Origin: Octopus vulgaris
Taxonomy: Eukaryota
Direction of reading: 5' to 3'
Length of the DNA stretch: 64,000 nt
NCBI GenBank assembly: GCA_951406725.2
Contig: OX597833.1
Coordinates: forward strand, 11,656,001 to 11,720,000
A program made the position numbers and the translations under genes. Within the stretch, counting starts at the first letter, position 1, and each line of letters starts with the position of its first letter. Shown here piece by piece: positions 420-48,820 of the stretch. The notes under the pieces were generated by a model, which searched no databases, was not told where the DNA came from, and saw only the letters and a list, made by a program, of their open reading frames with translations.

Positions 420-3400
420 CAATCTCAATTTCGTCCTCGAACTAAGGTTAATTTGAAAAAAGCTACAAAATAAATCCTACAGCCATGTCAGATTTCAGCA
501 TAGACCCATCATTTTCCTTTTGTAGTGGCGGGTTGCATATGCAGCTGCGCATGCTCTGTACAGCTTAAACACATGTCGGTCGTTTTAACTGTCTAATTAT
601 GCTGCATAACTAACAACTGAATCAAAAGAAAAATTTGAAGATTTACTAGCGTCCCATGTTTTCCATAATTGTCTAGAAATTACACTCACGAAGATATTCA
701 TAACCCAAAGAAGCGAATCCGGATTTGCCCATCGGAATAATTACTTCGGGATTGTAAACACAAAGTTCACTTTGATGTGTATTGCAACGTGATGTTGTTA
801 GCCTTCGTTTATCTGAGAAATATTCGACACACTCCAACAGACACTCATGAATCCTATTGGATATAACGTGACGGTCACAACATCTCAGCCTTCTTACACA
901 CAGCATCCGTGCTTGCCCTGACTATATTTGCTCTCTTTACTCTCACTTTTATGGGTGTTGTATTCGTTTCGCATGAAATGTATTCAGCTTCTAGGATCCA
1001 TCCTTTCTTCGAGTCTGGTATGTTTACGTAGCGGATCGAAAAAATCGTCATATTTGATGTTCTCTGCTGCTGAAATGAGGCCATTTTGTCTGGTTGATTT
1101 CTTTTCTTATTCTTGTATATCAGCGTTTAGTGTATGATGTGAGTGTTCTGTGTATCGACTTCCATTTTGTCATATTCTGTGGAGAGGTGGGAAGGTTGTG
1201 ATTTAGATTTAGGATTGGCAGGACCAATACTTATTTCGACTGTCTTTTGAAGGATTCATCGTGTGAATTCCACAGTCTCAGAAACTTTAAAATATACATT
1301 TAGTGATATTTCTAAAGTAGACGATAAATAGGTTTTATAAGAGATGGGGTAAGAATAGAACGGAAAGTTTCCTGATTAATAACGGCAAATAGAATGGATT
1401 GTGTGGAAGTATCTGGTTGTTGTTGAAAGAATCAGTTAAGTTCTGTGCGAAGTAATGTAGCGGTTCATGGCTCCTTGTCAGAATCCGAGTTGTAATTTGA
1501 AAACCAAGACGCCTGAGATAGTAGCGTCAAGCATTATATTTTATAAGGCTGGGCCAGAAAAGCTGATATAATTCTATGGAGGTACTTTATTTGGGGATTT
1601 TGCTGAATCATGAGACAGAAGACAAAATACTGTTAAACGAAATAGCATTTTACTTCAACATTGAATTTGGTAAACTGAAATTTTACAAAATGTGATCTAG
1701 AATTTTTCAGGCAGATTAAGATTTTTACTTCGGGATATTTCTGGCATTCAACGTCGCCTCTTTTGTAAAGCTCTGAAAACTAGTACACAAGTTTATTGTA
1801 ACGATAGACATAATTTAAAGAAAATATTAGGTAACACAATTAAAATTTTATATTATTTATTGTAATTCACAGACATCTTTTCATATGGAAGCGAATTTAA
1901 TTTCTATTCAATGTTTACTGCACACAACGCAGGTTAATTCTCGACCATTGACATACGGTGGACATGGCAATGAACCACAACCAGCCTGAACGAAATACAA
2001 TAAAGCTCCATCTTCGTCTCTGTAACCTGCTGGATCAGCTTCTGGTGCATGATCCACACACACATATTCATGTCTGCCCTTATGCCCGGGATGACTGGAC
2101 ATCAAATATCCTGAATACTCAGCTGTCCAACCAGCGTAACACTGTGTCCTGGCTGGTAACATCATAACAACAACAGGTTGTCGTGTCAAACAGACAGCGC
2201 ACGGAACGTTGTGATCATTAAGTGCATTAGCGTTAGCAAAAGAAAAGAGTTTATTAAATAGGTAAGGTTTTAGTTGATATTCAGTGCCATGAATCCAACC
2301 TCCATCTACAACCTGTGCAGTATAATTGGCCCAAATGGGATCGTGGGGTAGACATAAGAGATTACTTCCGCCACCAGTATGGGAATAATATTGTCCACCA
2401 GCCACACCTAGAATTGGTAAGAATAAATCAAGTAAAAAATATATTAAGCAAAATTATATATGAAATAACGGAAACATTCATTACAGTTTGACCCTTAAAA
2501 GAAGTCATGTTTAGTCACGTGTGAACGAATTGTGGTGTATGTGTTAGTGTTTATATGAGTGTAAGCTGTGTGTTGCTGAATGAGAGTGTGCATGTTTTCG
2601 CAGGTGTGTGTTTGTCTTCTCTACATATATGTGTGTGTGTGTTTGTTTGTGTGTGTATGTATGTGTATTTGCGTGTGTTTGTGTGTGTCTGTGTGTTTTT
2701 GTGTGTCTGTGTGTTTGTGTATGTGCGTGTGTGTGTGTGTGTGTGTGTGTGTGTGTGTGTGCACGATTAGGTAATCGTGGTTGTGATGTGTATTATTACG
2801 TATGTTTGCATGGGGTAGATGTCTGTGTGTGGATGTAAACAAACGGAGAAAGGAAAGGGATTTTGTAGCGCATGTGGTCGTGATTTCCCGAAATGGAAAA
2901 TTAGTCGTTCACGTTTGAACGGGAAAATTGTTGGTGAAGGGAATTGCATGTGGTTTGAGTAGAACAATACGAGAGACGGCAAGATGCAGAGAACTGGTGG
3001 GTAAGAGGGGATGAAATACTGTTTAGCCGACCATACGGGTGTGGCTGGCTATATCCATCGGTTTGTCTCGGACGAGTCAGGCCTACCACGAGACGTGCCT
3101 ACCACATACTATAATATTATGATCACACAGATTTTATTTCATGCAAAGCATGAACTGAGGTGGGGTGAATTTTGAAGCTCATTGATGGCGTAGTGCTTAA
3201 GATGAATGGACAGCGATGTCGGCGATCGATAAAGGATATGTGTAGGGTTTATAGGGAGCAGATTCACAAAGGATGCGAGGTTGGTTGGAGATGTGGGAAG
3301 CAGTAGCTTTGAATTGGAAGTGTCGGCGTTACCTTACAAAGATACACTGGACAATTAATGAGGCGAGGTGTTGCATGAAAAGAGATAGGTTAAAGGGGTA

Positions 3401-47200: not shown

Positions 47201-48820
47201 ATATGCATATATATGTATTTACATATATGTATGTGTGTGTGTGTGTGTGTGTTTGTGTGTCTTTGTGCGATTGCGTGAACGATAGTTCGTATGTATGTGT
47301 ATGCCGTATAGGAACATATGCAGATGTTTCACTACGCTCTGACACTGATATGTGTATGCATGCATACATAACTACACACACATGCGCAATTACATAGTCA
47401 CCTCAAATAAGTACATGCATACGTGTCCATGTACATACAGATACGACAGAGGCAATCACACATCTCGCACACACCGATGGATGAATTGACTCTCTTTTTA
47501 TAAATCACTAGCAGTGTCGCCCGGCGTTGCTCGGGTTTGTAAGGGAAATAACTATATAAGCATTTTTAGAGAGTTATAGCCAAAAAATAGCAAAAAATGC
47601 ATTAAAAATGGAAAGAAAATTATGGTAAAATTTTTTTAAATCGTTGACTCATCGTAGACATTTTTAGACAGTTACTTACCTTATATAATAGCGAAAAAAA
47701 TGAATTAAAATGGAAAAAAATGATGGTAAATTTTTTTTTAAATCGTAGACTCATCGTAGACGCGCGCTAATACCCAGAAGGGCTCGATATGAATCACGAC
47801 TATAAGATACCCGGTTTTGGTTAAACTGCACCGCAAAATGTGGGAGTAGTTAGGAATCTAAATCGTAGGAGACAGACACACAACTTCACTTTTAAAGATA
47901 AAGATTTCAATGAGAAACGTCAATCTATATCTTACAACGTACAAAAGAAATCATTGCTGACATTAAAAATAACCACTTGTTCTACATAGAGTCAGTTCGC
48001 AATACATTCTCTTATGCCTTCCAGTAATACCAAACGCAGATCGCTTAAGAGGATATTATTATTAATTACTCTCTGCAAATCCTTACTTTCGTTTGATAAT
48101 AATATTTGTTAGTCATTATGTGAAGTATTATAGAATTTTCCCATTATTTAATCTAAAGAAATTGGATGCCTTTCGATCGAGATGTGTTTTTATCTATCTA
48201 TCTATCTATCTATCTATCTATCTATCTATCTATCTATCTATCTATCTATCTATCTATCTATCTATCTGTCTGTCTATCTATCTGTCTGTCTATCTATCTG
48301 TCTGTCTATCTATTTGTCTGTCTATGTATCTATCTATCTATTTATCTATCTATCTATTTATCTATCTATCTATCTATCTATCTATCTATATATATATATA
48401 TCTGTCTGTCTGTCTATCTGTTTATCTATTTATCTGTCTATCATTCTATCTATCTCTCTATCTGTCTATCTATCTACCTATCTATCTATCTATCTATCTA
48501 TCTATCTATCTATCTGTCTGTCTGTCTATCCGCAAAGATATCAATCCATACACACACTCACACACGCATTTACACACACGCACACATAATACATACATAC
48601 ACACATATTTACACGCATACCTAAATAAATACATGCATACATACATGCATATATTAACACAAAATCTATGACTTACCGTTTTCGATTTCCCTTCCATTTT
48701 TCCTATTCTTGAATCTTGATGAAGAATCACGATCGTCAGAACGAGAAGAACCCCAAAAGCTATGAGAGAAGAAATGGAATAACGCTGCGAAATATTCCTG
48801 GACAGTTGTGCGAAATCCAT
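41218..48820 (-). CDS. Paralog 3: short-chain collagen C4-like protein, 254 aa (266 aa if upstream in-frame ATG at 48856 is used); exons 48820-48677, 46120-46075, 43395-43321, 41717-41218
   Basis: Exon 1 [48 protein letters not shown]|gtaagt. Exon 4 is open from 41717 ([24 protein letters not shown]..) although the ORF track only starts at 41499. The exon 4 acceptor is AAG here versus TAG in the other copies. Confidence 0.85.
43850..45750 (+). mobile_element. Fossil APE-RT LINE in intron 2 of paralog 3
   Basis: [13 protein letters not shown] near 44420-44460; [12 protein letters not shown] in ORF 45402..45794. Confidence 0.65.
46158..46209 (-). other. Duplicated/alternative exon 2 of paralog 3 ([17 protein letters not shown], 52 nt)
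   Basis: Good acceptor (ctctatttttccacag), same phase 0 to 1 as exon 2, weak donor (A|gttcta); lies 37 nt from the main exon 2. Confidence 0.65.
47508..47904 (-). mobile_element. Non-autonomous Helitron-like element
   Basis: Minus strand starts A|TC, ends with hairpin CCCGAGCAACGCCGGG then CTAG|T; internal duplication of about 100 bp. Confidence 0.7.
48190..48530. repeat. (TATC)n/(TGTC)n microsatellite
   Basis: Directly visible. Confidence 0.95.

Follow-up and report, generated by a model that had tools for sequence, protein, structure and literature searches.

A tandem array of collagen-less, spongin-type NC1 proteins with diversified loops in Octopus vulgaris

Why would an octopus keep, side by side, several genes that encode a collagen's globular head but not its rod, and why do short segments of that head differ so sharply from one gene to the next? 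The question is raised by a window of 64,000 nucleotides of the Octopus vulgaris genome (contig OX597833.1 of assembly GCA_951406725.2, positions 11,656,001 to 11,720,000 of the forward strand; all coordinates below are window positions), in which three neighbouring genes encode such a head. The diversified array is well supported; its function we infer, and the evidence suggests recognition rather than a structural collagen. We give a probability of about 0.55 to the reading that these are trimeric, anchored and perhaps shed proteins, diversified in the germ line, whose three composite sites bind outside ligands with a preference that differs by paralogue.

All three genes lie on the minus strand and have four exons, GT..AG introns and a sole stop codon at the end; the products are 254 to 255 amino acids long. 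Each protein consists of an N-terminal hydrophobic helix, a dibasic stalk site and a spongin-type NC1 domain with 10 cysteines. The longest G-x-x run is two triplets in all three proteins, so that there is no Gly-X-Y repeat. The first-pass annotation, made from the DNA letters, had described three intact four-exon genes, a collagen-less product and a retained cysteine scaffold, and all three descriptions were borne out. The last 80 coding nucleotides, which it had called practically identical, show 2, 2 and 3 differences in the three paralogue pairs, and the loop sequences it had quoted were found in frame on the minus strand within the span assigned to the family. Open frames, canonical splice sites and spliced contigs rule out an artefact or pseudogenes, and the missing Gly-X-Y rules out a structural collagen. 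In a translated search of the window, no further gene copy was found besides a second exon 2 in paralogue 3. The features are as follows.

12930..13073, minus strand: paralogue 1 exon 1, with start codon, basic N-terminal tail and hydrophobic helix (about residues 15-33); 48 of 48 residues are those of Octopus sinensis record P0004
6752..6797, minus strand: paralogue 1 exon 2, a stalk mini-exon carrying the dibasic K54-K55
4137..4211, minus strand: paralogue 1 exon 3, start of the NC1-like domain (first strand, Cys79)
1908..2407, minus strand: paralogue 1 exon 4 coding part, the remaining NC1-like domain with 9 cysteines and the stop codon
2379..2393, minus strand: paralogue 1 loop L1, residues 94-98
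2295..2318, minus strand: paralogue 1 loop L2a, residues 119-126
2256..2276, minus strand: paralogue 1 loop L2b, residues 133-139
2070..2099, minus strand: paralogue 1 loop L3, residues 192-201
29259..29402, minus strand: paralogue 2 exon 1
23313..23361, minus strand: paralogue 2 exon 2
20524..20598, minus strand: paralogue 2 exon 3
18251..18750, minus strand: paralogue 2 exon 4 coding part, loops at 18722-18736, 18638-18661, 18599-18619 and 18413-18442
48677..48820, minus strand: paralogue 3 exon 1
46075..46120, minus strand: paralogue 3 exon 2, where contigs join
43321..43395, minus strand: paralogue 3 exon 3
41218..41717, minus strand: paralogue 3 exon 4 coding part, loops at 41689-41703, 41605-41628, 41566-41586 and 41380-41409
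46158..46209, minus strand: duplicate exon 2 of paralogue 3, in frame, with the weak donor GTTCTA

Variable sites were chosen from 46 other octopus paralogues (entropy of at least 1.5 bits). This set was obtained by removing 19 records (the window genes, their matches, truncated records and Argonauta), which left 56, followed by de-duplication at 95%. Twenty of the 32 hypervariable sites fall inside the 36 loop positions among 189 (Fisher p 1e-9). The first-pass annotation had singled out three radically different segments (QYYSH and QLYNH among the variants); the clustering stands, with refinements. The middle loop is made of two variable segments (119-126 and 133-139) that flank a conserved I-x-G-x-E-Y strand, and smaller variable spots lie at 78-84, 152-153, 177/180, 231 and 242/244. 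Histidine and aromatic residues make up 31% of the loops and variable sites and 14% elsewhere. Twenty-seven positions that vary across the family (80 wider members), including the 144-148 and 209-220 loops, are conserved among the octopus paralogues, so not every loop drifts.

The contrast can be followed between paralogues 1 and 3, whose introns 2 and 3 differ at 8-10% of sites and whose downstream regions differ at 8-14%. Their scaffold synonymous divergence (dS) of 0.10 equals the intron clock of 0.09-0.10, and the loop codons have a proportion of nonsynonymous differences (pN) of 0.38 and a nonsynonymous divergence (dN) of 0.52. The earlier observation that these two genes differ in the loops despite similar introns thus holds. 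Codon models rest on the three coding sequences of the window. Under GY94 with a shared clock, the dN/dS ratio (omega) at the 32 independently chosen sites was 3.9 (p 4e-7), against 0.33 elsewhere. When a free regional rate was common to variable and conserved loop codons, omega was 3.4-4.1 (p 0.010, 0.0006 and 0.0004 for three region widths); positive selection on the loop sites is therefore likely from these codon comparisons, with conversion or multi-base changes adding to the contrast. A neutral fit would need a 3.5-5.7-fold rate in the loops; the conserved codons interleaved there carry 6 synonymous differences in 48 against 28 in 392 elsewhere, which is far from that.

The loops also appear to have been shuffled between copies. 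There are 53 loop combinations among 56 distinct sequences, one L3 is found together with four different L1/L2 sets, and a test like the pairwise homoplasy index gave a recombination signal (p 0.001-0.03) to which local covariation could contribute. Paralogue 1 is a mosaic: it is at 0.04-0.05 from paralogue 2 in the upstream region, in exon 1 and in the first part of intron 1, and from near exon 2 onward it is nearest to paralogue 3 (about 0.09), the mark of unequal exchange in a tandem array. The switch from paralogue-2-like to paralogue-3-like sequence lies in intron 1 (7600-8935, minus strand), and a short paralogue-2-like patch stands directly before exon 4 of paralogue 1 (0.06 vs 0.10). 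O. sinensis record P0015 carries L2 and L3 of paralogue 3 with the L1 of another paralogue, probably a recent loop exchange. Allelic hypervariability and somatic diversification are ruled out by near-identical orthologues.

AlphaFold2, given a 115-sequence alignment, predicted a helix (16-51) that a loose linker joins to a beta domain made of two internal repeats, at a mean predicted local distance difference test score (pLDDT) of 89. The loops are ordered in this model (pLDDT blocks 82-94), and L1 and L3 come after corresponding strands in the two repeats. In a Foldseek search, the best match had an E-value of 5.5e-6 (probability 1.00, about 17% identity), and the 19 best-ranked rows listed were all collagen IV NC1; a VIA structure search ranked collagen IV NC1 first (Z 7.6, root-mean-square deviation (rmsd) 4.6, 149 aligned residues). 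The fold class of the predicted domain is that of collagen IV NC1, which agrees with the initial assignment to the spongin short-chain collagen domain, related to collagen IV. The APC-beta domain of apicomplexan PLP1, a weak Foldseek match (E 0.11 and 9e-4, probability 0.14-0.18), was not taken as a relative. C1q structures were not among the rows listed, which carries no weight against such a likeness. Pfam gave nothing for the NC1-like domain, either with the three exon 4 products or among the families matched by 115 homologues, and no C4 match at E up to 1; a Monellin match at E 0.14 was below the cut-off and was rejected. Searched by sequence, PDB gave 0 matches for P0001, and a profile gave 8 chance matches (E 0.12-7.7). 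The nearest ESM Atlas clusters belong to the same family, some with PF01413 (C4) in 11% of their members. An ApeC cluster at 0.79 in the same resource is a lead only.

A homotrimer model of residues 64-254 in three copies scored 0.90, against 0.08 for the best of three controls; at least 92% of contacts were common to the runs, and partner pLDDT was at least 86. Among reference cases from microbes, 21 of 30 solved pairs and 0 of 23 single chains attain the pass mark for such models; among those from eukaryotes, 17 of 29 solved pairs (7 of 16 from animals) and 0 of 30 single chains do. In the trimer, one subunit offers residues 94-95, 98-104 and 121-131, and its neighbour offers 133-138 and 188-203; close inter-subunit pairs are 98-195, 100-195, 127-190 and 127-203. 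In this model, the variable segments would therefore meet in a composite site across two subunits. The tightest contacts use conserved residues (106-109 with 172-175, and 113 with 174-176 and 247). The N- and C-termini (64-70 and 253) also touch neighbours, as expected if both are at one pole. By the cysteine register, and with collagen IV numbering as we take it to be, L1 falls near E40 and L2a near residues 74-78. The accessible text of PMC4878091 places collagen IV residues 74-78 and E40 at or beside the trimer-trimer interface, so the loops may lie on the face away from the termini. The check suggested at the outset, whether the variable segments cluster on one surface, thus came out in favour as to order and as to their meeting across subunits; a common surface would follow from the modelled contacts.

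The domain is also found outside animals. A profile search returned 4,562 representatives at 50% identity; among the 141 new representatives in the best 150, 19 had three full domains, one had six and one had nine. Nine copies, then TNFR-type repeats and a C-terminal membrane helix, occur in Choanoeca perplexa (P0165); Bicosta minor (P0184) has three copies and a membrane helix, and a 3,827-residue chain (species unnamed) has six copies, a membrane helix and SH2 domains. Three proteins of Ancoracysta twista (P0172, P0180 and P0183) carry a MACPF domain followed by three C-terminal copies, as does P0181 (species unnamed). P0186 from Picozoa and P0166, P0187 and P0300 (species unnamed) belong with the receptor-like or secreted multi-copy chains, a group (3, 6 or 9 copies) that also carries TNFR-type cysteine repeats, Sushi or SH2 domains. 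In the receptor-like chains, the triplets stand at the N-terminal end. The domains of these multi-copy proteins match the profile at E 1e-30 to 1e-46 and retain 8 of the 10 cysteines; they follow directly on one another, and their variation falls in the same loops. One three-domain chain (species unnamed) was modelled with a predicted template modelling score of 0.84 and matched single-chain NC1 trimers (Foldseek E 2.6e-15; VIA Z 11.6, rmsd 4.5, 412 aligned residues). The triplet layout recurs in several independent sources (proteomes as deposited, so that contamination may contribute). Receptor tips and the ends behind pore-forming domains are the usual place of binding modules. Ancoracysta is presumably a predator rich in MACPF genes; the MACPF-linked triplet is likely a prey-binding end of protist pore-formers. 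In the portion available of a 2021 survey with InterPro collagen IV profiles, no NC1 was reported in 22 choanoflagellate proteomes (bioRxiv 10.1101/2021.10.08.463732). No Pfam profile catches this domain; an InterPro-based survey would have missed an NC1-type fold outside animals.

Taken as a mechanism, the preferred reading runs as follows. Each chain would enter the secretory pathway through an uncleaved N-terminal anchor, and three chains would assemble through their NC1-like heads, as modelled. The head would be displayed on the cell, or a convertase would cut at the dibasic site of the stalk and free it. A composite site rich in histidine and tyrosine would arise where L1 and L2a of one subunit meet L2b and L3 of its neighbour, three times per trimer. 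Duplication, recombination between copies and positive selection may have given each paralogue its own binding specificity, most probably for glycans or for microbial or prey surfaces. In their way of working, the trimers would then resemble the expanded bivalve C1q-domain proteins, although the fold is another. The diversifying ligand-binding family put forward in the first-pass annotation remains a proposal, with support from omega above 1 at independent sites, from ordered loops that meet in the trimer model, from their histidine and aromatic content and from the use of the head on receptor-like and MACPF proteins.

Several results weigh against this reading. When the variable sites alone were given a free rate, omega was 1.8 (p 0.21), and for the loops as first delimited it was 1.4 (p 0.42), so that the dN/dS check suggested at the outset gave omega above 1 with significance only under a shared clock or a shared regional rate. 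The loop regions are 2.1-2.8 times faster overall, so part of the contrast reflects older ancestry or multi-base changes, and only three coding sequences stand behind the omega estimates. Among the 12 closest pairs, 25 of 86 differences fall in loops (p 0.08). Paralogue 1 and its O. sinensis match are one residue apart, outside the loops; the label hypervariable thus applies between paralogues and not between orthologues. There is no sign of fast allelic turnover, and the repertoire appears to be paralogue-specific and fairly stable. NC1 trimers have already been solved, so the predictor may have passed the trimer by memorisation or by its resemblance to collagen IV. A good part of the variable residues serve as trimer contacts in the model, which fits chain selection equally well. 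An exposed pocket at the loops is a conjecture from the list of contacts, and the ligand classes and an immune role are proposals.

Three other explanations were weighed; the data separate the preferred reading moderately well from the neutral one among them, and hardly at all from the two others. The genes may encode a secreted matrix, mucus or gland protein, structural or adhesive, whose loops are tolerant and old and whose scaffold is kept alike by gene conversion. Conversion and mosaicism are real (the scaffold dS of paralogues 1 and 2 is 0.09, against about 0.2-0.27 across most of introns 2 and 3), the free-rate test was not significant, and what is accessible of two cnidarian studies reports family members up-regulated in a sea anemone adhesive disc (PMC6626399) and spongin-like genes that are mostly neuroglandular in Nematostella (PMC12549020). 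We nevertheless regard this explanation as unlikely: between paralogues 1 and 3, the scaffold keeps time with the introns while the loops do not, the interleaved synonymous differences fall far short of the rate needed, and other family-variable loops are conserved in octopus.

Alternatively, the loops could set the partner of a trimer. In a head-to-head code, trimers would dock with trimers on another cell or on matrix, as in collagen IV hexamers, in the service of adhesion or self-recognition. The probable position of L1 and L2a near the collagen IV trimer-trimer interface is in keeping with this, the anchor would allow docking between cells, and loops that are stable between orthologues are what a self code would have. 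We find it quite unlikely, since unicellular eukaryotes carry such a head on MACPF and receptor-like chains, where binding to foreign surfaces is more plausible, and freely recombining loops rich in histidine and tyrosine suit outside ligands better than matched pairs. Very unlikely, in our estimate, is that the loops decide which co-expressed paralogues may trimerise together, like variable region 3 and the beta-hairpin, which, in the accessible text of PMC4878091, serve side-to-side selection in collagen IV. Most of L1, L2a and L2b and all of L3 are inter-subunit contacts in the model, as such selection would have it; yet the tightest contacts use conserved residues, the same loops vary in single-chain triplets, where no choice of partner is needed, and the upkeep of some 20 paralogues would be left unexplained.

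Spongin short-chain collagens have the same NC1-type domain: identity is 55% and 50%, with 10 of 10 cysteines shared, to collagen-bearing members from amphioxus and soft coral (P0060 and P0067), both of which carry PF01391 (collagen). The 10 cysteines also fit the 7 shared and 3 own cysteines of spongin NC1 given in the available part of PMC5395295, which further reports spongins to be without the domain-swapping region. The family label rests on database names, and the Ephydatia founder protein was absent among the matches listed. Spongin collagens have a short Gly-X-Y domain before NC1, whereas the octopus proteins have an anchor and a dibasic stalk instead, and their genes form a tandem array with probably positively selected loops. 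No Pfam Collagen match was found for P0004. Collagen IV NC1 (PDB 1t61 and 1li1; single-chain trimers 6mpx, 6wku and 8txn) is alike in the two-repeat fold and the predicted trimer; the octopus domain differs in its low identity (about 17%), its 10 cysteines and its lack of a triple helix and of the HSQ motif. Collagen IV is defined by more than 100 Gly-X-Y repeats and an HSQ-bearing NC1, as far as the accessible text of bioRxiv 10.1101/2021.10.08.463732 goes. The octopus proteins are not collagen IV (no Gly-X-Y run, no HSQ, no Pfam C4), and they are not spongin collagens proper, as they have no collagenous domain. The nearest analogue in working is found in the molluscan C1q-domain proteins of bivalves and gastropods, with a trimeric head related to a collagen NC1 domain, tandem expansion and many secreted, pathogen-recognising carbohydrate binders (PMC10672478, in the part available). 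Their fold is a jelly-roll beta-sandwich, in contrast to the collagen IV NC1 fold of the octopus domain, and no Pfam C1q match was found for the three exon 4 products or among the families matched by the 115 homologues.

The proteins had been described as membrane-anchored. The Kyte-Doolittle 19-residue peak is 1.78 in paralogues 1 and 2 and 2.67 in paralogue 3, in each case starting at residue 15, behind a basic tail of 14 residues; tail and helix are conserved in 35 database octopod records. With its basic tail and hydrophobic stretch, and with no evident cleavage site of small residues, the N-terminus looks like a type II signal anchor, so far as the residues can tell. Exon 2 encodes little beyond the K-K site, and the aligned octopod stalks carry K-K or K-R in 51 of 59 cases; with such a conserved site after the helix, the mature protein may be shed, so that membrane anchoring has partial support. 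Type II transmembrane collagens XIII, XXIII and XXV and TNF-family ligands combine an N-terminal anchor, a trimer and shedding at a basic stalk site, the layout that is proposed for the octopus proteins. The octopus proteins differ from these in having no collagen repeats, another head and K-K (with R50 at P6) instead of R-x-K/R-R. There is no R-x-x-R in the three window proteins; at the corresponding stalk position, relatives from bivalves and amphioxus, and others without a species name, carry K-R or R-x-K/R-R. Among 73 single-domain homologues outside the main octopod set, 60 are without Gly-X-Y (a set biased by length limits); in 19 of these a hydrophobic stretch begins beyond residue 8, and 16 of the 19 have a basic site. 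Shedding is thus plausible, and the collagen-less layout is widespread in the family and not peculiar to this locus.

The three proteins correspond to the O. vulgaris records CAI9737343, CAI9737344 and CAI9737345, with identity over 254, 255 and 213 aligned residues. The array comprises at least 19 records: of the 20 retrieved for the family in O. vulgaris, 19 are on one 73.6 Mb contig, and twelve of these are numbered within CAI9737325-45; some may be isoforms. O. sinensis, O. bimaculoides and Argonauta have their own sets of records, mostly labelled 'short-chain collagen C4-like'. O. sinensis LOC115221650 has isoforms X1 and X2 (P0125 and P0004), one of which joins paralogue-2-type exons 1 and 2 to the domain of paralogue 1; this is either an annotation artefact or splicing across neighbouring genes.

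Public contigs were compared to the paralogue 3 stretch at 80% likeness. In all four runs, the exons are covered, most intron bins are empty, and introns 2 and 3 are bridged. In two runs, the bridging contig shows, relative to paralogue 3, the same 40 differences as paralogue 1 and no others, and the loose end of a contig, at the acceptor of exon 2, is identical to the 3' end of exon 1 that paralogues 1 and 2 have in common. Several distinct paralogue contigs occur within single runs. The runs were guessed to be RNA, for which the joints at splice sites speak; paralogue 1 is spliced in these contigs, and spliced transcripts, on which the first-pass annotation had made its reading depend, are therefore probably present for this gene. 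The splicing evidence is specific to paralogue 1. The duplicate exon 2 of paralogue 3 may be an alternative stalk; the contig joints there stem from other paralogues at 80% likeness and are not proof of its use. In the accessible part of an ink proteome (PMC10142993), one family member is represented by one peptide and one spectrum in one of three samples, which is too thin to be counted, and three supplementary files of the Octopus brain atlas (PMC9712504) gave 0 family matches.

Decayed retroelement-like sequence on the plus strand (about 4700-6450, 21200-23100 and 44000-45800) is common to intron 2 of all three paralogues and is therefore older than the duplications; no Pfam match was found for the single piece of it that was scanned. 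Between paralogues 2 and 3, a 775-codon frame (35919-38243, minus strand) with a GIY-YIG domain and a reverse transcriptase match below the cut-off is a Penelope-like element. Two fragmented copies of a non-long-terminal-repeat retrotransposon lie at 50550-54455 and 54814-58475 (minus strand), with strong reverse transcriptase matches at 51370-53055 and 55552-57234. Intron 1 of paralogue 2 holds a long, near-perfect inverted repeat (26740-26900 and 26870-27010, by eye), and further inverted elements were seen at 9398-9577 and 27658-27839.

In the portions available, the literature treats the family as matrix collagen or as an entry in omics tables (PMC5395295, PMC10142993, PMC13098435, PMC4878091, PMC13093298, PMC6626399, PMC5560861, PMC12549020, PMC5867623, PMC10672478 and bioRxiv 10.1101/2021.10.08.463732). 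Spongins are called specific to invertebrate animals in the accessible text of PMC5560861. A protein from the spider Oedothorax gibbosus (P0370) is among the matches with E 7.5e-35, although ecdysozoans are said to have no spongin-related proteins; it is contamination or a real exception. No function for collagen-less members was described in the literature found, and we found no published account of the array, of selection on its loops or of the unicellular triplets; the 2006 founding description may mention collagen-less members. The family is thus already known, and its diversified recognition use was not found in print.

A broader idea, which we hold to be speculative and unlikely in this full form, is that the spongin-type NC1 trimer was a ligand-binding head before animals, as at the tips of choanoflagellate receptors and at the targeting end of protist MACPF proteins, was later borrowed by collagens and is used combinatorially in octopus. 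If each site combines L1/L2a of one subunit with L2b/L3 of its neighbour on near-identical scaffolds, co-expressed paralogues could form mixed trimers, and about 20 genes would then yield some 400 two-chain sites, a repertoire like that of heavy and light chains without somatic rearrangement. The triplet heads of choanoflagellates, Ancoracysta and Picozoa bear on the origin of collagen IV. Annotations and omics tables list these genes under collagens, and a diversified recognition family may thus be overlooked in octopuses and in other invertebrates. The predicted composite site would give a handle on a question that has stood since spongin-related proteins were found outside sponges, namely what they do.

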